Source: an uncultured delta proteobacterium (GTDB lineage: Bacteria > Desulfobacterota > Binatia > Binatales > Binataceae). Taken from it: DNA of 64,000 nucleotides. The notes under the pieces were generated by a model, which saw only the letters and a program-made list of their open reading frames with translations, was not told where the DNA came from and made no database searches. Every line of letters starts with the position of its first letter. Position 1 is the first letter of the stretch. Of this stretch, positions 1-62,460 are shown in pieces. The stretch spans positions 1,228,579 through 1,292,578 of the forward strand of contig CAVRJV010000014.1 in NCBI GenBank assembly GCA_963721485.1. Reading direction: 5' to 3'. The translations under genes and the position numbers were made by a program.

Positions 1-429
1 TTCGACAGGGCAACCAGGAGCAAGTCGAGGCAGTGCTGAAGGAAATCGATTCCATGCCCGAAGGCGAGCTGGCAGTCGGGCTGGCGCGCGCAAGGATACG
101 TTTGAATCATTCTGACCAGCAGGGCGCGGAACGGATTCTGCGCGAACTCTGCGGCCGTTACCCGACCAACCACGAAGCCTGGATGCAGTTGGCGAATGTG
201 GAATTCGATCTCAAACAGTATGAGCAGGCGCTGACCTGCTACCAGCGGGCCGGCGAGGGTTGGTTTGCGAGATACGACGACTGCATCTTTCGATAGCCCA
301 AACGCTCCAGGCGATGGGCCGCGACCGCGAGGCGCTCGATCAATGCCGGCTGGCGGAGGCGATGGGGCCCCACGATTGGCGGCTAAAGTTCGCTTGCGCC
401 AAACTCCGAACGATATTGGGAGTAAGTAG
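1..429 (+). pseudogene. 3' end of a TPR-tailed GT-C-type membrane glycosyltransferase paralog, frameshifted
   Basis: Frame 3 from the window start reads KEIDSMPEGELAVGLARARIRL...QYEQALTCYQRA. This is colinear with the C-terminal TPR part of the 6794..9052 product (EVESMPEGELAVGLEQVEIRL...). Homology continues in frame 2 (LQAMGRDREALDQCRLA vs LHTLGRDREALKQCRLA), so there is at least one frameshift near 270-290. A second is needed before the expected stop (TAG 427-429). Confidence 0.55.
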
Positions 430-469
430 CGGCCGATTCGATCCCTCAATGGTCGTCGCAATCGCCATC

Positions 470-1692
470 GTGAGTCAAGCCAATCCACAAGAGCGCCGAC
501 GCGCTGCCAGAGCCTGCGAAGCGCTTTTACCTTCCGGAACTTGACGTTCTTCGATTTTTCGCTTTTTTCGCTGTTTTTGTTTTTCACCTACCAACGCTGG
601 ACACCCTTTCTTCTACGAACGATCACGGCGCTACTTGGCAGTCTTGGCAACTGCCGGGGCTTTCGGCGTGGACCTGTTCTTCACATTGAGCGGCTACCTG
701 ATAACCAGGCTGCTGCTCAGGGAACGGAACAGACCGGAGATATCAACCTCAAAGCGTTTTACGTCCGGCGAACCCTGAGGATCTGGCCGCTATACTACTT
801 TTCTCTGGCATTGGCATTTCTTCTCACGCGGCTCCCGGCGTCGATCGACCTCGGCGCCGCCATTCCTCGCCAATGTTTTCGCGCCTATGCCGGCTGATCG
901 GCTACTTCTTCATGGCGATATTTGTCTGTTCAACTTCAATTTCGCTAATGGCTCTCTTTTGACTAATCCGCTGTCCCTTCATGGCTCATCTCTGGAGTCT
1001 CTCGGTCGAAGAACAGTTCTATCTGTTTTGGCCGTGGTTTGCGCGATACATTCCGCGCAGGCGAATCGTTATCATTCCTATACTCATGATTGCGGTGGCC
1101 TGCGTCACTGCGCGCGACTTTGAATTTCGACATGCAGAGGCTGATGTGGAACAACACTTTCATACGTCTTGATCCTATAGCGGTGGGAATTTTGATAGCA
1201 CTTATGCCAGCGCTTAATCCGGGCGCCTACTCTTCGATTGGTGCTGTTGCATCGGCTTTGCGAGTTGGGTGTTCGCCGCCGTGTTACTGTGGAATACCTA
1301 TTGAGAGGTTGAGTACAGCACACTCAAAATATCGATGGGTTTTCCCGCGATTGCACTTGGCAGCGGTGCTTTCCTGCTGGCGACGTTGGGGACAAAGAGC
1401 CTTAGCTCAAGCTCCGCGCTGGTTCGTCGCCTGGTCTATCTGGGCAAGATTTCCTATGGCCTCTATGTGTACAACACGATCGCAACTTTAACAGCCATGC
1501 TGTTCCTGTATCGTGGCGCATTTGGGACTGCTTGTGGCTGGGGTTGGCCGCCTGGACGGCGTGCACTTCTACGATACTGCTTGCATTCGGCCTAAACGTA
1601 GCGATTGGCCGCGGTCTTCGTACCGGTGGCTGGAAGCACCTTTCTTGCGGCTGAAAGAGCGATTCACCCGCGTCCCGTCGCGCGCAGTCTGA
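470..1692 (+). pseudogene. acyltransferase family 3 (OafA/YrhL-type), tandem copy 1, heavily frameshifted
   Basis: The start block gtgagtcaagc is shared with copies at 1718 and 2944. Motifs FYLPELDVLRFFAFFAV, GVDLFFTLSGYLIT, RRTLRIWPLYYF, LWSLSVEEQFYLFWPW, YLGKISYGLYVY and a C-terminal LKERF are all present. They are scattered over all three + frames (ORFs 541-897, 981-1172, 1090-1491, 1335-1595), which needs at least 5 frame changes. Confidence 0.8.
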
Positions 1693-1717
1693 GCAATTGG
1701 GCGAAGTAGTCTCAGTC

Positions 1718-2920
1718 GTGAGTCAAGCAATACAACAGAACGCCGGCACGCGGGCAAAGCATGCGGAGCGCTTTTACCTGCCGGAACTTGACGTTCTGAG
1801 ATTTTTCGCGTTTTTCGCAGTTTTCGTTTGTCACGTAGCACCCAGCGGGCCTTACTTCTACGAGAGTCACGGCGTGCTTGGCCGTCTGGGCGTTTCCGGA
1901 GCTTTCGGCGTGGACCTGTTCTTCACATTGAGCGGCTACCTGATAACCAGTCTGCTGCTCAGGGAGCGCGAACAGAGTGGAGACATCAATCTTAAGGCGT
2001 TTTACGCGCGGCGAACCCTGAGGATCTGGCCGCTATACTACTTTTCTCTGGCATTGGCTTTTCTTCTCACGCAGATTCCGGCGTCGATCATCGCGGCGCC
2101 GCCATTCCTCGGCGATCTCTTTGCGCCCATGCGTCTGATTAGCTACTTCTTCATGGCGATTTTTCTATTCAACTTCAATTTCAGCTAATTCTCTTCGACC
2201 AATCCGTTTCCGTTCATGAGCTCATCTCTGGAGCATCTCGGTCGAAGAACAGTTCTACCTGTTTTGGCCGTGGTTTGCACGATACATTCCGCGCAGGCGC
2301 ATCGTCATCATTCCTTTCGTGATGATTACGGTTGCTTGCGTCGCGCGCGCGGTTATCTGCAGGCTCAACCCGCTTGGACTCCCCTGGAACAACACATTCA
2401 CACGGCTGGATCCTATTGCGATAGGAATTCTGATAGCGCTCCTGCCGAGGTTGAATCCGCAGCCCGCGATTCGCCTCGTGCTGGTTGTTGCGGGATTCGC
2501 GACCTGGATATTCGCCGCCTACTACTGTGGAGTACCCTTTCGGCAAACCACGCTAAGCATATCGATGGGTTATCCGGCGATAGCTCTTGGAAGTGGCGCT
2601 TTCCTGCTGGCGACCTTGGGGGCAAAGAGTTTCAGATCTGTTACGCGATCGTTCGCTACCTGGTCTATCTAGGCAAGATTTCCTATGGCCTCTACGTGTA
2701 CGATTTGATCGCAATTTCCACAGCGCGGCTATTACTGTTTCGCGGGGCATTTGGGGTGCTTGTGCCTGGAAGTTGGGGGTCGTGGCCGTTGTCATTTCTC
2801 TGCATACTGTTTGCACTCGGCTTAAACATAGCGCTGGCCGCGGCCTCGTACCGGTGGCTGGAATCTCCATTCCTGCGCCTGAAAGAGCGATTCGCGCGCG
2901 TCCAGACCCGGGAAGTCTGA
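1718..2920 (+). pseudogene. acyltransferase family 3, tandem copy 2, disrupted
   Basis: The N-terminal ~157 codons are intact (to 2188). Then there is an in-frame TAA at 2186-2188 and an extra base near 2219 (atgAgctcat vs atggctcat in copy 1). The middle lies in frame 3 (ORF 2319..2672) and the C-terminus is back in frame 2 (LVYLGKISYGLYVY...SYRWLESPFLRLKERF, ending 2920). Confidence 0.8.
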
Positions 2921-2943
2921 GGGTTCCGGAATGAGTCTCAGCC

Positions 2944-4147
2944 GTGAGTCAAGCAATAGACAAAAAAGCCCGCATCCCGTCAGTGTCTGCACAACGTTTT
3001 TACCTTCCGGAACTTGACGTTCTTCGATTCTTCGCCTTTTTCGCTGTTTTCATTCATCACTTGCCGGTCCCGTTTGTGAATAACTTTTACGATAGGCCGG
3101 GCGTGCTTGGCACCATTGGCAGCGCTGGAGCTTTCGGGGTGGACCTGTTTTTCACGCTGAGCGGCTACCTGATAACGGGCCTGCTGCTCAGAGAACGGGA
3201 ACGAGACCGGGAATATCAACATGAGGGCGTTTTATGCCCGCCGAACGTTGAGGATATGGCCTCTATACTACTTTTCCATCGGACTGGGGTTTTTCCTTAC
3301 GCTTCTTCCCACGTCGATCACCTCGGCGCCGCCGCTCATCCGCGAAATCTTCGCGCCTCTGAAGCCGAGCGGCTATTTTTTCATGGCGATCTTTCTTTTC
3401 AACTTCAATTTCCGTAATTCCGTATTGACCGATCCGCTGTCGTTCCTGGCTATTCTCTGGACCATTTCGCTCGAGGAGCAGTTCTATCTGTTCTGGCCCT
3501 GGTTCGTGAGGCACGCGTCGCGAGAAAGGATCGCTATCGTTGCAATAGCTATGGTTGCGGTTGCTTGCGTCGTGCGCGCGTCTTTGACGTTCGATCTCAA
3601 CAGGCTTATCTGGAACTACACCTTCGCACGCCTTGATCCTTTTGCGGCCGGAATTTTGATAGCAGTCCTGCCCGCGCTCAATCCGAGGCTGGCGACGCGC
3701 TTGATGCTGGTGCTGCTCGGCATCGCGAGCTGGATATTCGCCGCGTCTTACTGCGGAGTACCCTATCAGAATGGCAACCTGTATATAGGCCTGGGCTATC
3801 CAGCGATCGCGCTTGGAAGCGGAGCATTCGTGCTGGCGGCGATAGGCGCACAGAGTCTCAGAAAGAACTCAGCTCCGGTTTCATTCCTGGTCTATCTGGG
3901 GAAGATTTCCTACGGACTCTATGTGTACGACGCGATCGCGATAGGTACATCGGCGTTGTTGTTGTATCGCGGAGCACATGGATTGTTTGTGGCCTCCGGA
4001 TTGGCGTTGTCGACAACGTTGCCCGTCTTCATACCACTCGCGTTCGGCTTAAACGTAGCGCTGGCCGCAGCCTCCTACCGATGGCTGGAAGCTCCGTTCT
4101 TGAGGCTGAAGGAGCGATTCACGCGCGTCCCTTCGCGTGCCGTCTGA
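2944..4147 (+). pseudogene. acyltransferase family 3, tandem copy 3, single frameshift
   Basis: Full-length, ~400 codons, with one lesion. One extra base near 3205 (34 nt here vs 33 nt in copy 2 across the RERE..INLKAFY block) shifts frame 1 (2944-3204) to frame 2 (ORF 3221..4147). All family motifs are present. Confidence 0.7.
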
Positions 4148-5573
4148 ACAAGTCCGTAAGAACGACACATGTCAGGATCACATAGAATGGATCGGCAACG
4201 AATCGCATGCGATTGTTTTCACCGCAATTGAGCGCAATTCCGGTGAAACCGACGAACAACACTGATATGGCGAGAAACAGCAGCGTCACTTCCTCAGGGG
4301 TTTTCGCTCCGCGACGCAGAATGAGAGCGGTACGAAATCCGGCCCATAACGACAGGCAAGTCAGGTAAGTCATAAGCACAATCGAAGTGCTGAAGCCCAC
4401 CCAATTTTCGGGCGCATTGCGATTCCTCACAAAGCCCAGTCGCGTTTTGACTGTTGCGAGTGGTAGCTCGTACAGAAATATCCAGCTGCCGAGCCCTTTC
4501 TTTTGAGCCCTGAAAGTGTCCCCGACATTGCCAGCAGGCTGAAAGTAGGCCTCAACAGCTACGGCGAGGCCGCGCGCATACGCTGAAGGACGATTGCGGA
4601 GTACCCACATCGCGTCGCGGAAATCTAGTCTCGACAGATTGATATAGGCGATGTTGTTGAAGTTGGGCTCAGCGGGAATTGTCTGTTTGAGTGCCTGGTC
4701 CAATGCAGGAACTCCTGTCGGCGGCGAACTATTAGGTGGAAGGTCGGAGAAAGGCACCGTCGAGGCGAGCGGAGAAAGTGTTCCGGCCTTCACCAGATCC
4801 TGCCGATCTTCGAGCGGTAACTGGAAGGTCGTCATCGTCGACAAGTTCATCCCGAACCATGAGCTGGTGGTGAAAACACCGAACACGAGCGCGTTTTTCA
4901 CGTACAGCGCAAATAGCAGTACCAGAAGGATTGTGAAGGACGGCACGAGACGGCGAAGCTTTTCCTGCGCGGCGAACCAAAGCGCGAAGCCCGCAGCGAT
5001 AAACCAGACGATCTGAAAGCTGGAATTCGCGAAAACAGGAAGAGCCATAGCTGCTGTGCAGGCGATTCCCCATCTGAGAGCTCCGCGAGACACAAACCGG
5101 TGCAGGCAAAATGCGGAGAGGCACAGAAAGAATATTGTCGGATAGGTGTCGTAGAACCAGTTTTCAAACATCAGGGTCGCCGGGCCGATCTCGAAAAGCA
5201 CGGTCGCAATCAAAGCGAGCCAGACAGGTACGCCCAGATCAATCCCGAGTGAAAGCATCATGAGCGCAATTGCCAAGCCCATCGCCGCGAAGAGGCCTTG
5301 GAAAAAGACATTCGCTGACAATGGAAACGCTTTCAGACCGGCTCCGAGAAGGAAGTTCATGCCCGGCGGCTGGCTGTGAAGGTAGTACAAGCTCTGCCAG
5401 TAGTCGGATCTGAGAATGTTAGGGTCAAGGAACTGCATGAACCATGTGTTCAGCGTGAAGCGATCGGGAGAAAAATAGAGCGACCGCGATATCACGAAAG
5501 CTACAACGACTGCGGCGAATGCGCTGCGGGGGGTTATGAAATGCGAGCCCGGATTTCCGTTCTTGGTTTCCAT
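4119..5573 (-). CDS. polytopic membrane protein, GT-C-like putative glycosyltransferase
   Basis: 484-aa ORF with many hydrophobic helices and an HSQPPG loop motif after the first helix, reminiscent of the hPPL loop of PMT_2/GT-C enzymes. It sits 3 nt downstream of 5577..6740 on the same strand. Its 3' end overlaps the convergent acyltransferase copy 3 by 29 bp. Function is a weak inference. Confidence 0.45.
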   Translation of the reverse strand: METKNGNPGSHFITPRSAFAAVVVAFVISRSLYFSPDRFTLNTWFMQFLDPNILRSDYWQSLYYLHSQPPGMNFLLGAGLKAFPLSANVFFQGLFAAMGLAIALMMLSLGIDLGVPVWLALIATVLFEIGPATLMFENWFYDTYPTIFFLCLSAFCLHRFVSRGALRWGIACTAAMALPVFANSSFQIVWFIAAGFALWFAAQEKLRRLVPSFTILLVLLFALYVKNALVFGVFTTSSWFGMNLSTMTTFQLPLEDRQDLVKAGTLSPLASTVPFSDLPPNSSPPTGVPALDQALKQTIPAEPNFNNIAYINLSRLDFRDAMWVLRNRPSAYARGLAVAVEAYFQPAGNVGDTFRAQKKGLGSWIFLYELPLATVKTRLGFVRNRNAPENWVGFSTSIVLMTYLTCLSLWAGFRTALILRRGAKTPEEVTLLFLAISVLFVGFTGIALNCGENNRMRFVADPFYVILTCVVLTDLFRRHAKGRA

Positions 5574-5576
5574 CGT

Positions 5577-6740
5577 TCAACGCATCGGCACTTGAGTCAC
5601 GATCGGCCGATAGATTGACATATCCGCAACGAGATTAAAGAACTTCAGCGAATTACATGTATAGGTCACGACCAGGGTGCCCGGCACCGTTTCGAACGAC
5701 GTATGTTCCTTCGCCGCGTAGCAAAAAATGCGCTTGCGCCGCGTTCGGCGCGTGTGCATCTCCGCAATGCTCATGAGCGATCGATACGGTGACCACGGAC
5801 CGTCGATCCGTTCGGCGGTCCGCGTTCCGATTTGACCGGTAGCGAATCCGGGTTGCTGCTGCACCATCACCCACCTGGCCATCTTGCGATGGTATCGAAC
5901 ACTGAAATCGGTTTGCCCACGAGCAACCAGTTCTTCGGCATCGTCGCCAATCGGTGCGCCTCTCCATTTTCCGCCCGCGGCCAGGTACTCGAGCGACTCA
6001 GCCGGATGGCCGAGACGGTCGAGGCCGATGCGCGTTAGGATAATGGTCTGACGGTTATCGCGCCGATGGTACATCGCGCCGAACATGTAGACGTACGGGG
6101 GCCGGAGAACGATGGAAACGCCGGGGAAGGTATCATGCCTCCTCGAAAGCGAGGTATAGCTGATGGACCATTTGTCGGGCTCCGCGTCCGGGTTCGCGAC
6201 CTTCGCAAGGTCGACTCCCGTGACCTTGAATCCAAATGGCTTCGCGGCGTTGGTGATTTCCACCCGGAGCAGCGCCACGTACAGCGTTTTCTCGTCGAGA
6301 AATCCGTCCAGCGGCCAATACCGGAACGCGCGCGTTCCGCTATCGAAGAAGGCGCTATTGGCGCGGGCTTTGCGGCCGTGCGCCGTACGCCGCCAGTGGT
6401 ATTCGATTGACCATTTGCCCATGCGGCATGAAGAGATAGCGATCGTATTCGCAACCATCGCGGAGCCGGCGCGCGTCCGCTTGCCCGGCCTGGAGACAAA
6501 CGAGTCGCCGAACAGCCAGGCCTCACGCTCGGGAGCCAAAGGAATCGAAGAGCCGCCATCGCCTCCGAGCCATCCGCCTTTGTACGGAAACGAAGGCATG
6601 CACGTCTCGGCCCGCGCCGCCGAGGAATTCGTAAAAGCGCAAACAATCGCGCCGCACGCAGCGATTGCAACGAAGGCATAGTGATCGATCAGATTTCGCC
6701 ATGTTTGAAAACTGGTTTTATGCATGAACCAATTGTTCAA
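5577..6740 (-). CDS. secreted DUF4185-like protein (putative glycoside hydrolase fold)
   Basis: 387-aa ORF with an N-terminal signal/anchor (HYAFVAIAACGAIVCAF..AARA). Motifs GGDGGSSIPL and WLFGDSF resemble DUF4185, a family that includes a mycobacterial galactofuranosidase. Assigned by eye only. Confidence 0.4.
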   Translation of the reverse strand: MNNWFMHKTSFQTWRNLIDHYAFVAIAACGAIVCAFTNSSAARAETCMPSFPYKGGWLGGDGGSSIPLAPEREAWLFGDSFVSRPGKRTRAGSAMVANTIAISSCRMGKWSIEYHWRRTAHGRKARANSAFFDSGTRAFRYWPLDGFLDEKTLYVALLRVEITNAAKPFGFKVTGVDLAKVANPDAEPDKWSISYTSLSRRHDTFPGVSIVLRPPYVYMFGAMYHRRDNRQTIILTRIGLDRLGHPAESLEYLAAGGKWRGAPIGDDAEELVARGQTDFSVRYHRKMARWVMVQQQPGFATGQIGTRTAERIDGPWSPYRSLMSIAEMHTRRTRRKRIFCYAAKEHTSFETVPGTLVVTYTCNSLKFFNLVADMSIYRPIVTQVPMR

Positions 6741-6793
6741 GAGGCCGTCGCGCAGACTTAATCACGCGCGGTCTCGGTCCGTGCCGTACCATT

Positions 6794-9052
6794 TTGAAAA
6801 ACAAGGAGGTGCTGGCTAGAATCCCTGGCGTGAATTGGCCGAAGCAAGAGCAGGGCTCTGAACAACTTCGAATCGAAAGTACTTGGTCCGCAGACTCAAG
6901 CGTACCTCTATGGCCGGCGTGGCCGCGTTGGCTCACCCGCGAGAACGCGATCCTGTGCTGCATACTCGTGGTCACGTCAGCAGCGTACCTCAGATGCCTC
7001 GGCAATGCGTTCGTCCTCGATGACGTGCCGATGCTGCTCAAAAATCCTGATCTCAGCGAATCGTCGTTTCTGTGGAAAGCATTCACCAGAGAAGAGTTCT
7101 GGTACACGGATGCTACCTTCCTGCCGCACTTCCGTAACTATCGGCCGCTGTTGCTGGTCTGGTACTGGATCGACAATCGGCTGTTCGGGTTAAATCCGGC
7201 GCCGTGGCACGCGTCGATTGTAATAGTTCATCTTGTCGCGGTCTGGCTCGTGTTCAAGATTGCCAGGCGCCTTGCCGATGACTCAACCACTGCGCTGCTG
7301 GCTGCTAGCTTCTTTGCGCTGACCCCTGTCCACGTAGCGGCGGTGGTGTGGATGGCCGGAGCGGGGTTCGCCCTCGCGACCGCGTTTGGACTGGCGGCGT
7401 TTTGTCTCGTGATTTCAGATACACAGTTTCCCGCGCGCGATTGGCTGGCAGCGATTGGGCTTTACGCCTGCGCTCTTTTGTCGCATGAAAGCGCGATCGC
7501 GTTTCCAGCGTTGGTCGCCGCTTATGCCTTCATCCTCGCACAGCCGGAACCCTCGTCGCTCTGGGTTCGCACGCGCCGAGCCCTGATCTGGTCTGTGCCC
7601 TTTGCCGGCGAAGTTCTCATATACCTTGGCTTAAGGAAACTGGTACTGGGATTCTTCATCAGCAATCCTTACGATCCAGCCAATCTTCTGACGAGCACGC
7701 AGGTTGCCCTCACCGTACCGCAGGTATTCGTCGCCTACCTTGTGGACCTGGTGATGCCGTGGAGGACGCTACCCGGCGATGACACGCTGCCGGTCTCTGC
7801 CGTGTCATCGCCGCAATTCTGGCGACCGCTCGCAGATATGGCGCTGATCGCCACTGCCTTTCTTGCTGTCGCAATCCGCAGCCCCAAACGCCGACTTTAT
7901 CTGTTTTGCGAAGCATGGATGGCAATCACACTCGCTCCGATGATGCTGTTGCACTCGGTCTATCACTTGGTTCAGGACTACTACCTTTATCTGCCCTCGG
8001 TTGGGTGGAGCATTTTGCTTGGCGACCTGGTAGTAGTCATAGCCCGCAAGAACATGCTTGCCCTCCGACTCGCATTCGGCGGCGCAGCTGTCATGCTCAT
8101 CGTGTATGCAGCGTTCTTATGGAAGGTGCAGTACTTCTGGCACGACGATACGAGCGCAGCCATGGGCTATGTCGAAGGCTCTCCCCGATCCATCGCCTGG
8201 CGGCTGACCCTGGCGACCGACCTCGAAAAACAACGGCAGTTCAAGCAGGCCGAAGATCAACTTCGTACCGCCCTGCGCCTCGAACCGGACGCTACCGGCA
8301 CGCTTTATCCCAATTCGCGCGTGGTGCATGCCGTTCTCGGCGAAATCTTGTTCGAGGACGGCAGCATCGACGCAGCCGAATCGGAGCTCCGGCTGAGCGC
8401 GAGCAGTCTTGCCGATGAGGGCGATCCCGCGATCGCAACATCTCTACGCGACTACATCGACGAAACCACGGCTCTGTACCGCAGAGGCGTTCGCGATCAG
8501 GAAGCGGGCCGCACTCAGCAGGCAACAGCCGAACTCAGTCAGGCAATCGCGTCGATTAATCGCGTTCCAGCAAGAGGTTTCGGCGCGCCAGCATTGTACT
8601 ATATCCCGCTGCTGCAGCTCTATGATTCCGTCGGAGATCGCCGGCACTTCCAGTCGTTAACCAAGGAAGTCGAGTCAATGCCGGAAGGCGAACTGGCTGT
8701 TGGTTTGGAACAGGTCGAGATCCGCCTGCAACGGTCTGACAAGATCGGCGCTGAGCAAGCGCTGCGTGAACTTATGAATCGTTACCCGGATAACGATCAA
8801 CTGCTGATGAAACTGGGCAACCTGCAGGCCGATCTTAATCAAAACCAACAAGCGCTGGAATCCTATAGTCGCATTTCGCATTGGTTTGGACATCCAAATC
8901 TATATGCCGTCAGGGCAAAATCGCTGCATACCTTGGGTCGAGACCGCGAAGCGCTCAAACAATGTCGATTGGCACTCGCTTCGGCCCTGCCCAGCGATCA
9001 TGAGACGCAGTTCATTTGCACCAAGATCAGAGCTGAGCTTGGGAGTAGATAA
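6794..9052 (+). CDS. GT-C fold membrane glycosyltransferase with C-terminal TPR domain (TMTC/PMT-like layout)
   Basis: 752-aa ORF. The first loop has the FVLDD motif, followed by FRNYRPLLLVWYWIDNRLFG and ~10 hydrophobic helices. The C-terminal ~280 aa are TPR-like (QFKQAEDQLRTALRLEPD..., NQNQQALESYSRI). The exact start is uncertain (TTG at 6794). Confidence 0.65.
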   Translation: MKNKEVLARIPGVNWPKQEQGSEQLRIESTWSADSSVPLWPAWPRWLTRENAILCCILVVTSAAYLRCLGNAFVLDDVPMLLKNPDLSESSFLWKAFTREEFWYTDATFLPHFRNYRPLLLVWYWIDNRLFGLNPAPWHASIVIVHLVAVWLVFKIARRLADDSTTALLAASFFALTPVHVAAVVWMAGAGFALATAFGLAAFCLVISDTQFPARDWLAAIGLYACALLSHESAIAFPALVAAYAFILAQPEPSSLWVRTRRALIWSVPFAGEVLIYLGLRKLVLGFFISNPYDPANLLTSTQVALTVPQVFVAYLVDLVMPWRTLPGDDTLPVSAVSSPQFWRPLADMALIATAFLAVAIRSPKRRLYLFCEAWMAITLAPMMLLHSVYHLVQDYYLYLPSVGWSILLGDLVVVIARKNMLALRLAFGGAAVMLIVYAAFLWKVQYFWHDDTSAAMGYVEGSPRSIAWRLTLATDLEKQRQFKQAEDQLRTALRLEPDATGTLYPNSRVVHAVLGEILFEDGSIDAAESELRLSASSLADEGDPAIATSLRDYIDETTALYRRGVRDQEAGRTQQATAELSQAIASINRVPARGFGAPALYYIPLLQLYDSVGDRRHFQSLTKEVESMPEGELAVGLEQVEIRLQRSDKIGAEQALRELMNRYPDNDQLLMKLGNLQADLNQNQQALESYSRISHWFGHPNLYAVRAKSLHTLGRDREALKQCRLALASALPSDHETQFICTKIRAELGSR

Positions 9053-9064
9053 CCATTGTACTAG

Positions 9065-10622
9065 CTATCGAGGAGTGGCAACACCGGTCGGATTTACCGC
9101 GAAGGGTGTAGCCAGCACTATCACACCTCGAAACCGCGCCATTTGCAAAGGGTAATAACGGCGTACCTTTGAAAAATTCTGAGGAAAAAGAGTCTCAGCG
9201 GTGTCAGCGAGAATCAGCACCTGTGCCCTGTGATCGTCGCTCAAAAGGTTCTGAGCTATGTGATCATTTCGCGAGTAGTAGATCACGGCAAACCTACCAT
9301 AGCTTGGAACAACATTTACCGGTCGCCCGGCCTTGAGCTCTGGCAAAACTGTCGCCGTCGCTTCGCGCCACTGCACCCCCCACTCAACGTCGCCAGAGCT
9401 GGAGTCATAGGAATCAATTCGGACACCGGCGAAAACAATTAGCAGCAAAAACGCTACGATTCGAGCTCTCGACTCCCCCAGTTCCCATATTCCGAGTCCT
9501 ATCAGCATACACGTCGGCACGATGCAGCTCGGTGCCCATCGGTGCGCAAAGAGAGGAGTCCATGAATAGATGGTGTCTACCATGAGCATCATCGGGCCCA
9601 GGACGAACACCAGCGGAACAAGTGGAATAAACATCCATAGCAGGGCAAAGCTCACTCCTTCAGAATGTTTCCGCCAGCCGCGAATTGCTCCCCAGACGGC
9701 CAGCGCGAGCGTGAGATACACGATAGGACTGTAAAGCGCGGGGCGAAGAAAGCTCGCTACGTAGTCGGTCAGGTAACCCGGCTTGATCCAGCTGAAGGAC
9801 CCCTCATTCTCGACCCAAAGACGCCAAGGAGTTAGAAAGGCTACGATCACTCCTGACGCCACAAGCGTCATAGTGACATGCCGGGCGTGGGGCCAGCGCG
9901 TCGCGCCGGGCCGCAGTTCATACAGCAAACCTAGAGCTTCCGCTACGAAAACCGGAACGGCGATCAGACTCGTTGCTGTCGCAACAATCGAAAATAGAAC
10001 AACCCATGTATGGTTTAAGAACCCTCCTCGACGAACACTGTTCAGAAAAAACCAGATTTGTAATAGTGTCGCGGTCAACATCAGTTCGTACATTCGGCCT
10101 TCTCGCGAATATCGGATGGCGACCAGATTGATCGCGAAAACAAAAGCACTTAATGCTGCAATAGCACTTCTTTCGCAAACAAAGGGCGGGACGCTTATGT
10201 CTTTTTCGCCGACAAAGAGCTCCCCTCGTCACAACAAACACTAATACGATCGCAATTGTGCCGAGCAGCGCTGACATTGCTCGGATCGAGACGACACTGT
10301 CTCCAAAGGCAAGCATCCAGAAGTGCAGCACCAGTTCATAAGCCGCCAATCTGCCCGGGTTGAAGAACAGTCCTTGATGAATTACCTGACCCACGGTCGG
10401 TGCAGACGCGGCCAGCCACGATGGCGCTTCGTCAGCCGTCAGTTCGAGTGCTCCGAGATCACGGAACCGCAACCATGCGCCGACCAACATCGCAGCTGCA
10501 AGAATACCCCCATTCAGCACGCCGGAAAAAGAAATCAGCGATTTGAGACTGGCCCCGTCGTTCATCGTTTGGTTGCGGTCAATTGAAGGCTTAGGAATAG
10601 GGGCTCTAAGGTTCGATTGCAT
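9065..10622 (-). pseudogene. GT39/PMT_2 (ArnT-like) glycosyltransferase, one frameshift
   Basis: The N-terminal ~130 aa (ADEAPSW, FGDSVVSIRAMSALLGTIAIVLVFVV) are in one frame. The remaining ~380 aa are in the frame of ORF 9065..10093, which stays open back to ~10230 (ELFVGEKD...IRYSREGRMYELML). The halves join only with a 1-nt change at the CCCC run at 10222-10225. Confidence 0.65.
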
Positions 10623-10635
10623 GGATCGTAAGGAG

Positions 10636-12417
10636 CTACTTCACAACTATCTTGTAGGCCAGTCTGCCATCTGGATACGGAATCACGACGTTCGGCGGCA
10701 GCAAGGTCCGCTCGCTCCCTTCGAAGACAAATATGCCATGCGGGAATGATACTAGAGCCTTTTGTGGTGGCTCAAACCTATAACGATCGAACCCTGTAAC
10801 AGGGCTGAACAGGCCAGGCTTCTGCAAAACCGGACCACGCTGAAATGAAACTGGAGGATATTGTTCGAAAAACAGTACATAGATGTAAGGCTGATTTGTC
10901 TTCGGCGTGATAACTACGGGCCAATCGTGGCTGTAACGTTGGTCGATCGTGTATAAAAACTCCTGGATACCGTACTGAAAGTACGGCGCTGCAATGGTAG
11001 GAAACTCCTCGAAGTAGTAGCGGAGGTAACGCGCGCCATGAAATATGACTGCCGAAGCAAGCAATGCCACCGCTACAGTCCGCAGCAGCGGCAGCTCTGC
11101 AGTCAAATCCAGAAGCATAACAAAACCCAAGGCCGACAGTAACGTCCAAGGAACCACCGCCAAGATGTCGTGCCGCGAATCTGCGTGAGCGAACAGGACA
11201 GCCGGCGTGACAGGACCTGCCGGAACCTCCTTGGTGAGGAGAACCCAGGGCGTGGGCATCCGGCCGGGTTCGGGAGAGCTGGCGCCTAAGGGCTTTATTA
11301 AGGTCGCTGGTACCGCGGCGATTATGAGCCAAATTACCAGCATGATTGCGATCCTGCGACGCTGCCGGCTGAACAACGCGATCAAACCGAGAACTACCAG
11401 CAGGGCTTGCTCTGGCAGCAATTCACCAAACCCCGGGGGATGAAGCATCGTCCAGTGATCTCCGAGATCGCCGTTGATGAATAGAAAAAAAGGATTGAAG
11501 TTACCAGCGAAGTTAGCTGCTAGCAGATACGGTATCGACTTTGTCGCAAGCTTTACCTGCTCACGGTCGCACCCAGGACAAATCGCGGCGGGATTGAATA
11601 GCGATAGGTTGTGGTATTGCGCCTGCATCTCGTCGAAATGTCGGACGGTGACGACGATCTGCGGCACTGCGAAGGCGATAATCACAGTCAGAGCAATCAA
11701 CGGATAGAGCCAGGCCCGCATCAGTTCCCGCCTGTAGAAGACCACTAGCAAGCCAACCATTAGCGGTGTAGCGAGCCTCGCAACAGAGTAGGAGTAAAGC
11801 GAAGCCCCAAAAAATATCGCGCTTAAAACCAGGAAACGGTTCTTGCGAGTGTGAAGCCAAGCAAAGAAGAACGCGATGGCCAAGGTAGTAGTGGCGGAGG
11901 CCGTGATTGCCTCCTGGCCGAAGCGGCTGAACGCCAAATGCCAAGGCGACAGCGCACCGAGTACCGCTGCCGCTGCCGCTCCCGGCCGTCCAAGCAGCAG
12001 TCCTGCCAGGCAGACTACCGCGCCGAGGTCCACGATCCCCCAGATCGCTGCGCCGACCCGCACAGTTGTGGTTTTGAGTCCGAATACCGCGACCAACGGC
12101 ACCAACGAGTATTGGAGCAGCGGCATTCGGAAGTCGTTAAAACCCTGCATGACGATCGGCATGAAGTTTCCGTGATGATCCCGCCCGGTCATTAGAATGC
12201 TGTATGCGTCGTATCCGTCGCAGGCCTCATCTTGATTGAGTGCGGGCGGCATCTGATTCAGTCGGACGACGCGCAGACCGGCACCTGCAACCAGCGCCAG
12301 GACCAGCACGGTGACGCTCAGCAGCTTGACCGGACTCTTGTTCGAAGTGCGCGAAGCATCGGCGCCCCGAGGTTCGGGAGCCGCCTTCGACGCCAATTCT
12401 AGGTGTTGATTGTTCAC
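10636..12417 (-). CDS. GT39/GT83-type (ArnT/PMT family) membrane glycosyltransferase
   Basis: 593-aa polytopic ORF. The first periplasmic loop has LNQDEACDGYDAYS, then FSRFGQEAI and many helices. It lies immediately upstream of, and on the same strand as, the disrupted paralog 9065..10622. Confidence 0.65.
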   Translation of the reverse strand: MNNQHLELASKAAPEPRGADASRTSNKSPVKLLSVTVLVLALVAGAGLRVVRLNQMPPALNQDEACDGYDAYSILMTGRDHHGNFMPIVMQGFNDFRMPLLQYSLVPLVAVFGLKTTTVRVGAAIWGIVDLGAVVCLAGLLLGRPGAAAAAVLGALSPWHLAFSRFGQEAITASATTTLAIAFFFAWLHTRKNRFLVLSAIFFGASLYSYSVARLATPLMVGLLVVFYRRELMRAWLYPLIALTVIIAFAVPQIVVTVRHFDEMQAQYHNLSLFNPAAICPGCDREQVKLATKSIPYLLAANFAGNFNPFFLFINGDLGDHWTMLHPPGFGELLPEQALLVVLGLIALFSRQRRRIAIMLVIWLIIAAVPATLIKPLGASSPEPGRMPTPWVLLTKEVPAGPVTPAVLFAHADSRHDILAVVPWTLLSALGFVMLLDLTAELPLLRTVAVALLASAVIFHGARYLRYYFEEFPTIAAPYFQYGIQEFLYTIDQRYSHDWPVVITPKTNQPYIYVLFFEQYPPVSFQRGPVLQKPGLFSPVTGFDRYRFEPPQKALVSFPHGIFVFEGSERTLLPPNVVIPYPDGRLAYKIVVK

Positions 12418-12632
12418 TATCCCGGGCGAGCAGTCCGACGCAATTACTTAGCAACAAAAGGGAATTCCAGCAATTCGACCTGATTCAAGAGGGGGGTCCT
12501 CAGGCGGGCGGTCAAAATGAGAAATTTGGCTGTTCATTCGTGCTTGCTTTAGAGTTATATTTTGTTACTTCTTTGGGGCCGCTTGGGGACGATCTGGCCG
12601 GCGTTTTTTAGCCTTCGCCGGGGACGGGAGAA

Positions 12633-15533
12633 TTGGATTCAGCAGTTAGACTCGCTCGCAATTGGCGTCGGCGAACGCCTGTCTTTGTCGCACTCATCGT
12701 CGTCGCGTTGTTTGCGGCGATTGTGTTTGCGAGCGGCAACACCGCCGACGGCGTGCTGGGGCAATCGGATTTCACCCATACTGCTGCCAACCTCGTGGAT
12801 GCCAAAGGGCTCTTCCTTCCCAACGCGGTAGCGATCGACACGAGCGGCGCGCCGAATCGAATTTACGTCAGCGACCGCAACAATAATCGCGTACTGGGGT
12901 GGCAGGACGCAGCAACCTTCGCGAACGGCGCGCCGGCCGATCTTGTAATCGGGCAACCGGATTTTCTTTCGTCGCAGTGCGGGGCTGTAAGTGCATCGAG
13001 TCTGTGCGATCCCGACGGCATCGCAGTTGACGGATCGGGCAATCTCTATGTCGTGGATTTCAGCCGCAGCCGGGTGCTTGAGTTCACGAAACCATTCGAA
13101 GCGTGCAACAAACCCTTTCCGTGCGTCGGCGGTCCGGCCAATCTGGTATTCGGTCAGGGTGGGAGTTTCACTTCCGGTGAATGCGACAGCGACACGGCCG
13201 GTGTCTCTCCCACCGCAATCGATCTGTGCAACCCGTCGAATGTAACCGTGGACCACCTTGGCAATGTCTTAGTATCGGATTCCGGCAACAACCGAGTACT
13301 CGAATACAACACACCGCTATCGAACGGAGTTACTGCCTCAGAAGTGTTTGGCCAAGGCGGAAGTTTCACGACCGGAGGGTGCAACAACTCCGATACCCCC
13401 GGAGGCACTCCCAGCAATATCGGCTTGTGCGACCCGACCGGGGTCGTTGTCGACGGCAGCGACAATCTATACGTCGCGGATACTGCAAACAATCGGATTC
13501 TCGAATACAACAATGCGCTCTCCAGCAATGGCACAGCGGGTACCGTTTTTGGGCAGGGCGGCGACTTCGCATCAGGTCTCTGTAATTTCGACATAGTAGA
13601 GGGCACTTCCACGGCTATCGACTTGTGCGGTCCAACTGGCCTGGCGCTCGATGCCGCGGGCGACCTTTACGTGGCCGACGGCGGCAATAGTCGTGTACTG
13701 GAGTACAACACGCCACTGACGACTGGCGTGACGGCGGAGCAGGTGTTCGGCCAGAGTGGTAGCTTCTCCTCTAACGTCTGCGACTCCGACGTTCCTATTC
13801 CAGGCAGCGAACTCGACGGCAGCAGCGCGAACGATCTGTGCTCTCCTGAAGGAGTCGCGGTCGACGCATCGGACAACCTCTACGTAGCGGATACCCAGAA
13901 CAACCGTGTGGTTGAAATCAACGCTCCGCTCTCCACTAACACCACCGCTGACCGCGTGCTGGGACAGCTCGATTTCGTCCATCAGAAGGAGAACCTGACT
14001 GACGCTCAAGGACTGTACACGCCGGAGGGCGTGGCGATCGACACCAGCTCGACGCCGAATCACGTTTACGTCTCGGACTTCAGCAACAATCGGATATTGG
14101 GGTGGAACGACGCTGCAACGTTCCTCAACGGAGCTGCGGCAGACCTGGTGATCGGCCAGCCGGATTTCCTGTCCTACTTTTGTAATGGAGCAACCGAAGC
14201 GGCGGTGAGCGCAAGTAGCTTGTGCGACCCTGTGGGCGTCGCTGTTGACGGCTCGGGAAACCTCTACGTGGCAGACAGCGAAAATAATCGCGTGCTGGAG
14301 TTCACCAGCCCGTTCGCAGCCTGCAGCAACACTTTCCCATGTGTCGGCGGCGCTGCGAGCGTAGTACTCGGCCAGGGATCGAGCTTGAGCTCCAATACAG
14401 CAAACAATGGCGGAGTCAGCGCGAACAGCCTGGACATGCCTGTGGGAGTCGCGGCAGACGGATCGGGAAATTTGTACGTCGTCGATAGTGGCAATAACCG
14501 AGTGCTCGAATACAACGCTCCAGTGACCAGCGGAGCCTCTGCAGCGCTGGTCTTTGGTCAAGGTGGGAGCTCCACTTCGCACGCGTGTAACTTCGATACT
14601 GGCGGCTATCTGAAAGGAGCATCGGCGATCGATCTTTGCGATCCTTCAGGCGTTACCGTAGATGCATCGGAGAACGTCTATATTGCCGATTTCAGCAACT
14701 CGCGAGTGCTTGAGTACAAAACTCCGCTCAATCAGCCCAACACCAGTCCGATGGCAAACGAAGTTTTTGGCCAGGGTGGAAGCTTCAGCTCGAATCGATG
14801 CAACAAGGGCGGAATTGGCGCCGCAACCCTGTGTGATCCAGATGGCATCAATGTGGATGGATCGGGCAATCTCTACATCGCCGACAACGTCAACAATCGC
14901 GTGCTCGAATATAATACGGCTTTAAGTAATACGACTGCGGACCAGGTTTTTGGCACGTGTGGGAGTTTCACATCTTCGGTATGCGTCGGCACCGGCGCCG
15001 ACAGCCTAATCGATCCAACCGGAGTCGCAACGGACAACTCGGGCAACCTCTACGTGGCTGATCGTGAGGACAATCGCGTGCTGAAGTACGATAAGCCGCT
15101 GACCATTGCAACTCCAACCGCCACTGCCACGTCGACCGCCACTGCAACACCGACCGCTACGGCCACGCCGACGGCCACAGTGACGCCAGTGCCAGCGTCA
15201 TTGAAGGTGTCGCCGACAAATATCCGCTTCGCTTCGACAATGGGGGTAACAAGCAAACCGCACAAGGTGAAGGTCGCTGCTGGAGCCAATGCGCAAAAAC
15301 TGTCCATTCTCATCGAGGGCGCATCGGCGACGCCCCCTTTCAACATCGATGGGGCAAGCACTTGCCGCGTCGGCATGCAGCTGGCGGCCAAGAGTAGCTG
15401 CTTCTTCTCTCTGACCTACACCCCAGGCGGGCTGGGCGAGCAGCCGGGAACATTCACCATAACTGACGACGCACAGGGCGGCGGCCAAACAATTGTCACC
15501 CTGAGCGGCACTGGCAAGGCGGCTAAGAAGTAG
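12633..15533 (+). CDS. secreted NHL-repeat double beta-propeller protein with short PT linker and one C-terminal Ig-like (choice-of-anchor D / HYDIN-type) domain
   Basis: 966 aa with a signal/anchor (RRRTPVFVALIVVALFAAIVFASG). About 12 repeats of the D.SGNLYVAD..NNRVLEY type form two internally duplicated halves. Then linker ATPTATATSTATATPTATATPTATVTP and a terminal ~110-aa domain ending TLSGTGKAAKK. Confidence 0.8.
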   Translation: MDSAVRLARNWRRRTPVFVALIVVALFAAIVFASGNTADGVLGQSDFTHTAANLVDAKGLFLPNAVAIDTSGAPNRIYVSDRNNNRVLGWQDAATFANGAPADLVIGQPDFLSSQCGAVSASSLCDPDGIAVDGSGNLYVVDFSRSRVLEFTKPFEACNKPFPCVGGPANLVFGQGGSFTSGECDSDTAGVSPTAIDLCNPSNVTVDHLGNVLVSDSGNNRVLEYNTPLSNGVTASEVFGQGGSFTTGGCNNSDTPGGTPSNIGLCDPTGVVVDGSDNLYVADTANNRILEYNNALSSNGTAGTVFGQGGDFASGLCNFDIVEGTSTAIDLCGPTGLALDAAGDLYVADGGNSRVLEYNTPLTTGVTAEQVFGQSGSFSSNVCDSDVPIPGSELDGSSANDLCSPEGVAVDASDNLYVADTQNNRVVEINAPLSTNTTADRVLGQLDFVHQKENLTDAQGLYTPEGVAIDTSSTPNHVYVSDFSNNRILGWNDAATFLNGAAADLVIGQPDFLSYFCNGATEAAVSASSLCDPVGVAVDGSGNLYVADSENNRVLEFTSPFAACSNTFPCVGGAASVVLGQGSSLSSNTANNGGVSANSLDMPVGVAADGSGNLYVVDSGNNRVLEYNAPVTSGASAALVFGQGGSSTSHACNFDTGGYLKGASAIDLCDPSGVTVDASENVYIADFSNSRVLEYKTPLNQPNTSPMANEVFGQGGSFSSNRCNKGGIGAATLCDPDGINVDGSGNLYIADNVNNRVLEYNTALSNTTADQVFGTCGSFTSSVCVGTGADSLIDPTGVATDNSGNLYVADREDNRVLKYDKPLTIATPTATATSTATATPTATATPTATVTPVPASLKVSPTNIRFASTMGVTSKPHKVKVAAGANAQKLSILIEGASATPPFNIDGASTCRVGMQLAAKSSCFFSLTYTPGGLGEQPGTFTITDDAQGGGQTIVTLSGTGKAAKK

Positions 15534-15909: not shown

Positions 15910-17333
15910 TTACTGATGGTCACTGACAGATACTGACGATCTTTTCCGAGGATCGGAACCAGAGACCAGCGATACTATGCGTCTGCCCCGAACATCGGCG
16001 CGGCTGAACTGGATCTCGATTCCGGCAGCACGAAGATTGGCTGCCATGCGGCGCAGCGCGTTGCCCAGCGCATTCGGCGCCTTGGGCCAGCGTACCGAGC
16101 GGCGCATGCTTTCACTCATCATGCCGGTGAGCCGCGCATGCAGTTCCGTGACCGTCCCGCTAAAGCCCTCCTGGGCCAGCTCGGCAACCGGTTCGTACAG
16201 GGGCGAGGACTCAAGCGCCAGGTTGTGCGTCTCGGTGCGGTTGGACTGGTAAGCAATCAGGGCCTCTCCAGGTTTCATTCCGAGGCTTTCCTCGCAAGCA
16301 TTTACCCAGAGCGCGAAGTCGGCCATCCGCGGCGGCTGATCGAGCCTGACGTTGGGCAGGTTCCTGAGTCCCGCACTGGCGGCATCGAGCAGTGCGCCCA
16401 GGATTCGCGGTCGTACCTCCTCGAACTCGCGCCAGAACTGCGCCTCGTCGCGGCGCATCTCGGGCTTCATGTCGAGGAACTCCACGATCACCGCGCGATC
16501 GAGAAAGTCGGGCCGCGCGGCACCGAGGTCGGGAATCGCATTGAACACCATCGGGCGGGTCGCGTCGAAGATCGCTTCGTCATGATCGCTGTAGAGTTCC
16601 CGGCCGCCGAAGCCGCCGCCGGTGGCCAGTCGGCAAGCTGCGTCGGCGAGCTCCTCCGGCAGATGGCTCAAGTTATCGAAGCATACGAGCCAGGAATTCC
16701 TTGCCGCCGCTATCAGATCGCGAACTTCACGGGGTACGCCACGCAGCGCCCCGGTACGCGGATCGATCAGCGCGCTGATTATTCTGCACGCGGTCGTCTT
16801 GCCCGCTCCCTGCTCACCCTTGGCGACCAGGATTGGGCAAGGAACGCTGGGACGCAGCGCCGCGACCAGGAAGGCCTTGATCAGGGTCCAGCCCTGGTGG
16901 TCGACGTTGAGGAAGCGGCGTAGTTCGTCGAGACTGCCGCCGCGCTCGGGTGCGGGCAGCGGCCGGGAGCCGCGTGTGCGACGAAATCTCGGCGGCGGTC
17001 GATCTACTATCCGCCACCCTTCGGCATCGATCTCGACCGCCCGCCACGCGCGGTCGCAGAGGTCCAGATAGAGCTTCCCTCGTGATTTGCGACGCGGAGA
17101 TTGATGAGAGATTCCTCACCATCAAACAGGGCTTTCGCTTCCAACAGATCCAGCGTGGCGCGGATGGCTTGCGCGCCGGGGCTCTTGCCGGTCTCCTGGT
17201 AGTAGGTCCGCAGCAGGAAGAGCTGGAACGGGCGGGAGCGAACGGGACGATTCTCGCAGTGCCCATCGACCCGAATCGAAGCCCAGCCGTGCTGGTCGGG
17301 ATCGTGAAAGAGCTCGATTCCAGTGTCGAGCAC
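15910..17333 (-). pseudogene. phage/plasmid-type P-loop NTPase (D5/P4 helicase-like), one frameshift
   Basis: The frame of ORF 15910..16671 stays open upstream to ~17080 and contains the Walker A motif GEQGAGKTT. The N-terminal 85 aa (ORF 17007..17333, ELFHDPDQHGWASIRV...) are in another frame. The join (RVANHEG / KLYLDLCD) needs a 1-nt change at the CCC run 17077-17079. Confidence 0.55.
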
Positions 17334-17342
17334 AAGTCGATA

Positions 17343-17618
17343 TCAGTCTGTCCGCGGCGGACTCGCCGTCGCCGGAATCAAGGGCACCGGCGCGCCGAGC
17401 ATGTACTCGATCAGATCCGCTTTTTCGTATTTCTCGAGAATCCTGCGCCAGCGTTGCCACGTGACGGGGTCCCCGCGCCTGATCGCCGCGAAAGGAGAGT
17501 ATCGCTTCGGTCGAGACCAGCCGCTCCGGATCTTCTGCGACCGGGGCTCGAGTTCGCGCAGGAACAGCAGCGCCATCTCGACTGCGATGCTGCGGGGTGA
17601 TTCGCCTGCCGCACCCAT
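17343..17618 (-). CDS. small hypothetical protein (phage-module context)
   Basis: 91-aa ORF packed tightly between the HNH gene (stop 17622) and the helicase-like gene (start 17333) on the same strand. No recognisable motif. Confidence 0.4.
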   Translation of the reverse strand: MGAAGESPRSIAVEMALLFLRELEPRSQKIRSGWSRPKRYSPFAAIRRGDPVTWQRWRRILEKYEKADLIEYMLGAPVPLIPATASPPRTD

Positions 17619-17621
17619 CGT

Positions 17622-18119: not shown

Positions 18120-18125
18120 GACGGT

Positions 18126-20127: not shown

Positions 20128-20221
20128 TTGCGCTTTCTCCTTTCTGCCTACTGACTAAACTATCGCTCTTAACGACAGTTGTCAACTATCGATATGACCG
20201 TTTGGTGCAAGGAGGGAGTCC

Positions 20222-31024: not shown

Positions 31025-31095
31025 CCGTTCATCGAAACCGTAGGAAAGAGAGAAAAATCGAACCTAGTCGAGCCATTCGACGCTAGCGTGTTAAT

Positions 31096-58364: not shown

Positions 58365-60241
<1,877 letters not shown>

Positions 60242-62441: not shown

Positions 62442-62460
62442 CTGGCCTCCCTTAGATCAT

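Follow-up and report, generated by a model that had tools for sequence, protein, structure and literature searches.

A 64,000-nucleotide (nt) stretch of DNA from an uncultured soil bacterium of the Binataceae (Binatota; GenBank assembly GCA_963721485.1, contig CAVRJV010000014.1, positions 1,228,579 to 1,292,578), which we refer to in full as the window, opens with a row of genes for membrane proteins resembling glycosyltransferases of the C fold (GT-C), next to a gene for a secreted protein whose domains are joined by a Thr/Ala-rich linker. The question raised by this locus is what these enzymes glycosylate, and whether the linker proteins encoded alongside are their substrates. Homolog searches agree with placing the window in Candidatus Binataceae. 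Positions 1–12417 are best explained as the distal portion of a cluster of Binataceae genes that relatives show in full form, and we are confident in reading the cluster itself as a predicted periplasmic glycosylation pathway using polyprenyl-phosphate-sugar donors. Our tentative view, held with slightly less than even confidence, is that the cluster performs protein O-glycosylation and that the flanking propeller-linker-immunoglobulin (Ig)-like proteins are among its substrates.

The part of the cluster within the window consists of two genes for GT-C proteins with tetratricopeptide repeat (TPR) tails (GT-C+TPR), a gene for a PMT_2 protein of 593 amino acids (aa), a 520-aa-type PMT_2-like gene, a gene for a 484-aa GT-C protein, a DUF4185 gene, and three acyltransferase-3 copies. 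The genes for GT-C enzymes are arranged as follows.

3–421, plus strand: C-terminal TPR tail of a GT-C+TPR paralog, from TPR Pfam matches; the rest is cut off by the window edge
4119–5573, minus strand: polytopic protein of 484 aa, assigned a GT-C fold by an AlphaFold model and Foldseek
6794–9052, plus strand: 752-aa GT-C (PMT clan) protein with a TPR tail, from TPR Pfam matches, an AlphaFold2 model, and motifs
9065–10622, minus strand: 520-aa-type GT-C-like gene, split by a frameshift, from alignment to the intact ortholog of the related locus L001
10636–12417, minus strand: 593-aa PMT_2-family GT-C, from a PF13231 match over the curated cut-off

All four visible membrane proteins, with about 6 to 10 hydrophobic segments each, are GT-C or PMT-clan like by profiles, fold, or motifs, in agreement with a preliminary description of this DNA that had called these four genes GT-C-like. 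The 593-aa protein matched PF13231 (E 7.4e-8; 33.2 bits vs a 26.1-bit cut-off) and, below the cut-off of that model, the NCBIfam family TIGR03663 (Agl23-like; E 1.6e-10), and D63-E64 in the first periplasmic loop is invariant in its family. The 752-aa protein has about 10 to 11 hydrophobic or transmembrane segments followed by a TPR tail at residues 452–752, which, judged from the topology, would lie on the periplasmic side. Pfam and PDB sequence searches with its N-domain gave no direct match. An exhaustive phmmer search returned 26,121 cluster representatives at E <= 1e-3. Relatives at 31–36% identity (E 1e-35 to 1e-38) matched both PF13231 PMT_2 (40.4 bits, E 4.5e-10) and PF02366 PMT (35 bits, E 1.5e-8), and we place the 752-aa family in the PMT clan because of these matches of its distant relatives. 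Foldseek with the AlphaFold2 model (predicted local distance difference test score [pLDDT] of 82.5) returned the GT-C enzyme AglB at E about 1e-4, with TPR structures dominating the matches of the full-length model. Within the family, D77 is invariant and D76 nearly so, and Y116-R117-P118 and E232 are invariant.

The 484-aa protein had no match in Pfam or NCBIfam scans, and its assignment comes from an AlphaFold2 model built from 40 homologs (pLDDT 91). The top ~27 Foldseek matches of this model in the PDB were almost all GT-C enzymes, including STT3, AglB, ArnT, Pmt1/2, PglB, ALG9, Pmt4, and DPY19, with a probability of 1.0 for the top ~20 and TM-scores of 0.26–0.44. Its family (157 homologs from several phyla, most without a Pfam domain) lacks an invariant acidic residue in loop 1, its invariant residues being H66, Q68, P69, and P70. 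At three loci inspected in other phyla (a Zixibacteria genome and two metagenome contigs), the homologs were orphan genes without conserved neighbors, and their surroundings offered no clue to function. For the 520-aa-type gene, the GT-C-like character that the preliminary description proposed stood, but the single gene did not: 9065–10622 is not one open frame, as one +1 insertion in a GGGG run at about 10227 separates it from the intact 520-aa ortholog of L001. That ortholog had a weak PMT_2 match that fell under the cut-off (E 0.0021, 18.7 bits), ten hydrophobic segments were counted, and a D68-E69 pair in loop 1 is invariant among orthologs.

A fifth GT-C-like polytopic gene had been proposed as a fragment at 1–429. 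We saw no polytopic sequence there, only a TPR tail that in tblastn was 50% (positions 9–266) and 53% (positions 296–421) identical to residues 614–750 of the 752-aa protein. Two frames are needed to read this tail, which places a frameshift between about 267 and 296. By synteny, the tail would be the end of the second GT-C+TPR gene, corresponding to a 777-aa gene of L001.

No GT-C matches came from searching PDB sequences, directly or with profiles, for the 752-aa protein, the alignment of its N-domain, and the 593-aa and 484-aa families; full-length queries were swamped by TPR proteins. Comparison of the four membrane families by hhalign gave probabilities of <10% from alignments too shallow for sequence linkage, and the families are linked to each other by fold and motifs only. 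We also considered whether any of these proteins is ArnT or another transferase acting on lipid A or lipopolysaccharide (LPS), and rejected this identity as no membrane protein had such a match in Pfam, NCBIfam, or PDB sequence searches. The profile classification suggested by the preliminary description thus placed none of the visible membrane proteins in a lipid A/LPS transferase class.

The donor-making step of the pathway is suggested by the related loci. A common gene order holds in L001, L002, L006–L009, and L059 at protein identities of 50–85%: a gene for a family GT2 glycosyltransferase joined to a methyltransferase, a GT-C+TPR gene, an acyltransferase-3 gene, an optional insert (an extra PMT_2 paralog or the DUF4185 and 484-aa pair), and then a GT-C+TPR gene, the 520-aa gene, and the 593-aa gene. 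The GT2-methyltransferase of L001 (3466–4767) matched PF00535 (E 4.5e-28), and its best PDB match was the dolichol-phosphate-mannose (Dol-P-Man) synthase of Pyrococcus furiosus (5mlz, E 1.8e-28), followed by ArnC and GtrB. Because of this best structure match, we identify it from sequence as a predicted polyprenyl-phosphate-sugar synthase, which would provide the donor that GT-C enzymes need. Since relatives carry this Dol-P-Man-synthase-like protein at the head of the cluster, we read the whole as a probable lipid-phosphate-sugar pathway, and synteny suggests that the corresponding gene sits just upstream of the window. At a paralogous locus, L004 (~36% identical), the GT2-methyltransferase gene overlaps the start of a GT-C+TPR gene by 4 nt. 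In both L001 and L004 (8475–10004), the GT2 domain is fused to an S-adenosylmethionine-dependent methyltransferase domain and no transmembrane segment is predicted; this fusion may point to methylation of the sugar or of a lipid intermediate.

From the observed folds, families, motifs, gene order, and donor-synthase similarity, we infer the sugar, the acceptor, and the order of action as follows. The cytoplasmic GT2-methyltransferase would load a sugar onto polyprenyl phosphate, the donor would be flipped across the membrane, and GT-C enzymes of the four families would move the sugar to extracytoplasmic acceptors, most likely secreted or surface proteins. The TPR-bearing enzymes would pick the protein substrates, with Thr-rich linkers and/or Ig-like and propeller domains of the NHL and Kelch proteins at the cluster ends as targets, and the remaining GT-Cs would extend the O-glycan. 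Acyltransferase-3 may then O-acylate the glycan and the DUF4185 hydrolase may trim it. A protein acceptor is plausible because propeller-linker proteins flank most orthologous clusters and because both functionally studied GT-C+TPR classes that we found act on proteins, the animal TMTC1–4 enzymes by O-mannosylation of cadherin domains (PMC7801869) and Pseudomonas aeruginosa TfpW by O-arabinosylation of the group IV pilin (10.1101/2020.04.19.049825).

The candidate substrate at the end of the cluster in the window is encoded directly beside the 593-aa gene, from which it diverges.

12633–15533, plus strand: secreted protein in which a 44-aa Thr/Ala linker joins an NHL beta-propeller to a C-terminal Ig-like domain (NHL E 4.6e-78)

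This protein has an N-terminal anchor and carries its linker at residues 826–869. It is the only candidate substrate adjoining the cluster, and its orthologs adjoin the cluster in L001/L002, L008, and L009. The cluster does lie directly upstream of the first linker protein, as previously described. The other six begin at >=25 kb, and phage-like DNA that includes HNH and ERF genes stands in between. The earlier count of at least seven linker proteins with tracts of ~28 to ~330 residues was borne out in number, although the Thr/Ala/Ser/Pro tracts of the seven measured 41–309 residues. Over 1,089 residues, these tracts are 43% T, 27% A, 10% S, and 8% P. Each of the seven proteins starts with a signal or anchor sequence, and five end in an Ig-like domain of the ASH/Cep192_D4 type, those starting at 25073, 27953, 36540, and 60456 by Pfam and the NHL protein by sequence similarity.

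The same association was observed in relatives, where propeller-linker proteins with signal peptides flank five of six orthologous clusters. In L001, a protein with an Ig domain, a 145-aa Thr/Ala linker, and a Kelch domain is encoded 134 nt upstream of the GT2-methyltransferase on the same strand. In L004, an independent pair of GT2-methyltransferase and GT-C+TPR genes adjoins a gene for an NHL-linker-Ig protein, with three more linker proteins encoded upstream. We also found that TPR tails have changed more quickly than the catalytic domains, with a mean pairwise identity of 39% vs 49%.

Other features were seen among the distant linker genes of the window. A sedolisin-like (Pro-kumamolisin) open reading frame (ORF) at 31087–35766 has Thr/Ala linkers of 309 and 118 aa and stops inside a third linker (...ATATPTATATP*) with no continuing frame, so that it appears truncated. 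Two rve-family insertion sequence (IS) transposase genes, at 59111–60214 (plus strand) and 62486–63601 (minus strand), bracket the linker gene at 60456–62456. Two signaling proteins are encoded amid the linker genes, one with zinc ribbon, adenylate/guanylate cyclase, AAA_16, and TPR domains (50778–54431, minus strand) and one with Trans_reg_C, AAA_16, and TPR domains (55088–58132, plus strand).

The remaining genes of the cluster encode enzymes that might modify a glycan.

440–1692, plus strand: acyltransferase-3 copy 1, with at least six frame breaks, from tblastn fragments against the intact 411-aa ortholog of L001
1697–2920, plus strand: acyltransferase-3 copy 2, with several frame breaks (Acyl_transf_3 E 2.7e-15 for 1697–2188)
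2944–4147, plus strand: acyltransferase-3 copy 3, with one frameshift near 3200–3220 (Acyl_transf_3 E 1e-13 for 3221–4147)
5577–6740, minus strand: putative glycoside hydrolase of the periplasm, DUF4185/GH183-like, with a signal anchor at the N terminus (PF13810 E 1.6e-13)

The three acyltransferase-3 copies noted previously do stand in tandem, with ~1230-bp spacing and DNA identities of 60–90% by repeat-family analysis and DNA alignment, but in no copy is the frame open throughout. At the equivalent place, relatives on short-read contigs carry a single intact 411-aa gene, to which copy 3 is 61–63% identical across two frames by tblastn; NCBIfam scans gave a weak SucT match (E 0.0047). The DUF4185 assignment of the preliminary description was upheld, with PF13810 scoring 51 bits against a 39.5-bit cut-off over profile positions 24–274 of 309. 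The protein has a single hydrophobic segment (residues 17–35). Its gene shares a strand with the 484-aa GT-C gene and precedes it by 3 nt. This pair occurs in the window (4119–6740) and in L009 (7093–9710), with a 130-aa DUF4185 remnant in L001 (9024–9416) and L002, a distribution that indicates an insertion or deletion, by recent gain or loss inside the cluster.

These modifying enzymes bring in a different acceptor. In this alternative, which we regard as possible rather than probable, a polysaccharide or glycolipid of the cell envelope (for example, a lipoglycan, an exopolysaccharide, or a side branch of the LPS O-antigen) is built or decorated by a pathway of the GtrB/GtrC type or of the mycobacterial lipoarabinomannan (LAM) or arabinan type, in which GT-Cs add single sugars from polyprenyl-phosphate donors. 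Acyltransferase-3 would O-acylate the polymer and DUF4185 would serve in its remodeling. The TPR tails would act as scaffolds, like those of PelB, BcsC, and AlgK, and the linker proteins would be unrelated. The combination of four GT-C families in one cluster fits such a pathway, as does the presence of Acyl_transf_3 beside GT-C+TPR genes in 13 of 70 loci, with three copies in L003. In the same direction point the pairing of the 484-aa GT-C gene with DUF4185, a family of polysaccharide endo-hydrolases (PMC10115798), and the lack of a nearby linker protein at most paralog loci and of an adjacent one at the orthologous cluster of L006. Yet we saw no genes for polysaccharide export, polymerase, or flippase functions (Wzx/Wzy/Wza, ABC transporter) and no nucleotide-sugar genes in the window or in annotated relatives, and the membrane proteins matched no ArnT, O-antigen ligase, or Emb/Aft model in Pfam or NCBIfam. 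The characterized polysaccharide GT-Cs EmbC and AftD have carbohydrate-binding C-domains, not TPRs, which we also count against a polysaccharide acceptor, and a single polymer hardly explains the at least 35 TPR-bearing paralogs found in one genome.

The DUF4185 gene in particular may cut both ways. Members of its family have been characterized as endo-D-arabinofuranases (GH183), and a subset cleaves the arabinan oligosaccharides of the P. aeruginosa PA7 pilin (PMC10115798), so that by analogy this polysaccharide-type partner could also serve a glycoprotein. Two catalytic Asp residues have been assigned in this family, by mutagenesis in DgGH4185b and by homology in Rv3707c (PMC10115798). An explanation built on this activity is that the glycan is a D-arabinofuranose-type protein O-glycan as made by TfpW, with DUF4185 as a dedicated endo-arabinofuranase. 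TfpW combines 11 transmembrane segments with a TPR domain in the periplasm, and the DDX motif of its loop 1 is essential (10.1101/2020.04.19.049825), a published layout equal to that of the 752-aa protein. We nevertheless consider an arabinan very improbable: neither the window nor the related loci showed decaprenyl-phospho-arabinose genes of the DprE1/DprE2/UbiA type, the donor synthase of the cluster resembles Dol-P-Man synthase, and DUF4185 is only a remnant in L001/L002 and was not detected in L006–L008.

Whether the cluster is intact in this genome is raised by the frame breaks in the TPR tail at 3–421, all acyltransferase-3 copies, and the 520-aa-type gene. Unrelated genes of the window are also broken, at about 18.6 kb (18630) and 19.1–19.7 kb (19100–19750), as are genes at other loci from MFD metagenome-assembled genomes (MAGs; L006, L009, and L059), whose megabase-scale contigs suggest long-read assembly, and the orthologs on the short-read contigs L001 and L002 are intact. 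For these reasons, most of the breaks are probably long-read assembly indels, and we rejected pseudogenes as their main cause, since unrelated genes and other long-read MAG loci are broken too. Gene calls in the window should accordingly be treated as error-prone. Acyltransferase-3 copy 1, whose breaks are concentrated in 1.2 kb, may have been assembled badly or may be a true pseudogene. Between the cluster and the other linker genes, the stretch 15913–20145 has a raised GC content (62–64%), genes for an HNH endonuclease (17625–18125) and an ERF recombinase (18993–19814), and frame-broken genes. It has a syntenic counterpart in L007 and resembles the remains of a prophage or other mobile element.

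These observations bear on a further explanation, that the cluster is decaying and at least partly nonfunctional here and that its adjacency to linker proteins is accidental in a plastic region rich in mobile elements. The frameshifts, the HNH and ERF phage-like genes, and the two IS transposases speak for it, as does the presence or absence of the DUF4185 and 484-aa pair among close relatives. We judge it improbable, as the breaks extend to unrelated genes and other long-read MAGs and spare the L001/L002 orthologs, and the 484-aa, 752-aa, 593-aa, and DUF4185 genes are intact.

Returning to protein O-glycosylation, several observations weigh against it. No GT2 gene lies within the window. Acyltransferase-3 and DUF4185 typically take part in modifying and remodeling polysaccharides and would, by analogy, fit such an acceptor equally well, and the row of distinct GT-Cs resembles the stepwise assembly of mycobacterial lipoglycan or arabinan. 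Frameshifts in the 520-aa-type and acyltransferase-3 genes might mean that the cluster is partly inactive in this genome. The co-occurrence of paralogs and linker proteins that the preliminary description proposed as a check held at most orthologous clusters, but 47 of 60 nonorthologous GT-C+TPR loci had no linker protein within 10 kb, and the MAG with the largest paralog expansion has a linker protein near none of its 12 loci. In favor of a protein acceptor, when we counted ORFs of >=300 aa with a Thr-rich tract of >=40 aa, there were 25 in 1.22 Mb of GT-C+TPR loci vs 1 in 0.87 Mb of 80 control loci, an enrichment (~10- to 18-fold) that is only suggestive, as the controls, drawn from a metagenome scan with Binataceae MetY, represent a single orthologous housekeeping neighborhood across relatives, with lineage and region type uncontrolled.

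The resemblance of the 752-aa protein to TMTC enzymes is also limited. The preliminary description had ascribed a TMTC layout to 6794–9052; ~11 transmembrane segments followed by TPRs and the DD and YRP motifs were recovered, but other hallmarks were missing when we compared the protein with the seven motifs listed in PMC7801869. DUF1736 (PF08409) was not found in 11 N-domains (E <= 10), among the families listed for 30 full-length members, or in 10 distant relatives. The DW metal-binding motif, which in TMTCs belongs to the DUF1736 loop between transmembrane segments 7 and 8, is replaced by P322-W323, and the phosphate-binding Arg of ERxxY is missing from the sequence Q394-D395-Y396-Y397-L398-Y399 (QDYYLY) and kept only in some distant family members (DRYLY). 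Since DUF1736, DW, and this Arg are missing, the 752-aa protein is, as far as its sequence tells, TMTC-like in layout and not a member of the TMTC family.

The most notable side finding of this analysis is the expansion of GT-C+TPR proteins to at least 35 paralogs in one genome. The family occurs in other Binataceae loci (L006–L064), and the MAG SMAG_U14778 alone contains at least 35 copies over 12 loci, with as many as 5 in tandem within 21 kb.

GT-C+TPR loci of SMAG_U14778: L028, L034, L037, L038, L040, L043, L047, L050, L052, L053, L055, L056

One further idea, which we consider unlikely, is that the TPR tail of each paralog recognizes a different secreted propeller, Ig, or linker protein, giving substrate-specific periplasmic O-glycosylation, with the window cluster as one complete module. 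Such a module would comprise a donor synthase, initiating and extending GT-Cs, an O-acyltransferase, a trimming hydrolase, and substrates at both ends.

If the acceptor is a protein, O-glycosylation of the PMT/TMTC/TfpW type would extend to the Binatota, an uncultured and globally common soil phylum, and the extremely Thr-rich linkers of the Binatota secretome would gain a plausible role, for example in resisting proteases or keeping the chain extended, as cellulase linkers do. The system would also offer a bacterial model for TPR-based substrate selection, a question still open for the human TMTCs, which have been associated with hearing loss and malformation of the brain. If a polysaccharide is the acceptor, the cluster would be an ordinary envelope-glycan locus. 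If the protein reading is true, the features that would distinguish the cluster from described systems are the set of four GT-C families, the GT2-methyltransferase fusion, the O-acyltransferases, the GH183-like hydrolase, the diderm soil phylum, and a very large paralog expansion.

The pairing of such enzymes with linker-protein genes had been thought undescribed outside actinobacteria. Three cases contradict this: pilA-tfpW of P. aeruginosa, the Pgf cluster of Streptococcus mutans, and the GT39-celA pair of Caldicellulosiruptor bescii. By published layout, TfpW appears to be the closest characterized bacterial analogue of the 752-aa enzyme. The two systems share a polyprenyl-phosphate sugar donor, predicted in the Binataceae, an enzyme gene beside the gene for a known or candidate protein substrate (tfpW adjoins pilA; 10.1101/2020.04.19.049825), and a diderm host. 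However, TfpW acts alone, whereas the Binataceae cluster has four GT-C families; its donor route is of the DprE1/E2 type rather than a Dol-P-Man-synthase-like GT2-methyltransferase; and its substrate is a pilin, for which no gene was found in Pfam scans of the window, rather than candidate propeller-linker-Ig proteins.

With TMTC1–4, the 752-aa protein shares an N-domain of ~11 transmembrane segments followed by a TPR tail and, in loop 1, the DD (D76-D77) and YRP (Y116–P118; SHKSYRP in TMTCs) motifs at the 39-residue spacing of TMTC1 (D53 to Y92). It also has an LFAxxPxH segment as in the third transmembrane segment of TMTC3 and the conserved Glu of the H/K-E-S/T motif, within H231-E232-S233, and some of its homologs are named protein O-mannosyl-transferase by JGI. 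Apart from the missing motifs, the Binataceae enzymes differ in their bacterial host and in their dozens of paralogs vs four TMTCs.

In streptococci, systems combining GT-A and GT-C enzymes glycosylate Ser/Thr-rich disordered regions, and in S. mutans the genes for the enzymes and for their adhesin substrates stand together in the Pgf cluster (PMC12041528). The GtrB/PgtC2 and Pgf systems resemble the pathway proposed for the Binataceae cluster in that a GT2 makes a polyprenyl-phosphate sugar, a GT-C transfers it outside the cytoplasm, and the acceptors are extracytoplasmic Ser/Thr-rich linkers. In contrast, their GT-Cs belong to the YfhO family and lack TPR tails, their hosts are monoderm Firmicutes, and their clusters are without acyltransferase-3 or DUF4185.

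The C. bescii GT39 enzyme (Cbes_1864) glycosylates Thr/Pro-rich linkers, and its gene lies close to that of its substrate, celA (PMC6151902). Like the actinobacterial Ppm1/Pmt system, it shares with the proposed window pathway PMT-clan GT-Cs, a lipid-phosphate-sugar donor, and, as acceptors, secreted multidomain proteins with Thr/Pro(/Ala)-rich linkers. The window proteins differ from both in matching PMT_2 and not the GT39 PMT model, in having no MIR domain, and in representing several GT-C families vs one.

Finally, the mycobacterial LAM and arabinogalactan pathways resemble the cluster in their multiple GT-Cs using polyprenyl-phosphate sugars (polyprenyl-phosphomannose [PPM] and decaprenyl-phospho-arabinose [DPA]), an acyltransferase-3 (SucT), and DUF4185/GH183 hydrolases (PMC10115798). 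The two differ in that the window showed neither Emb/Aft/Mpt-type matches nor genes for an arabinose donor, and the Binataceae enzymes carry TPR tails in place of carbohydrate-binding domains.

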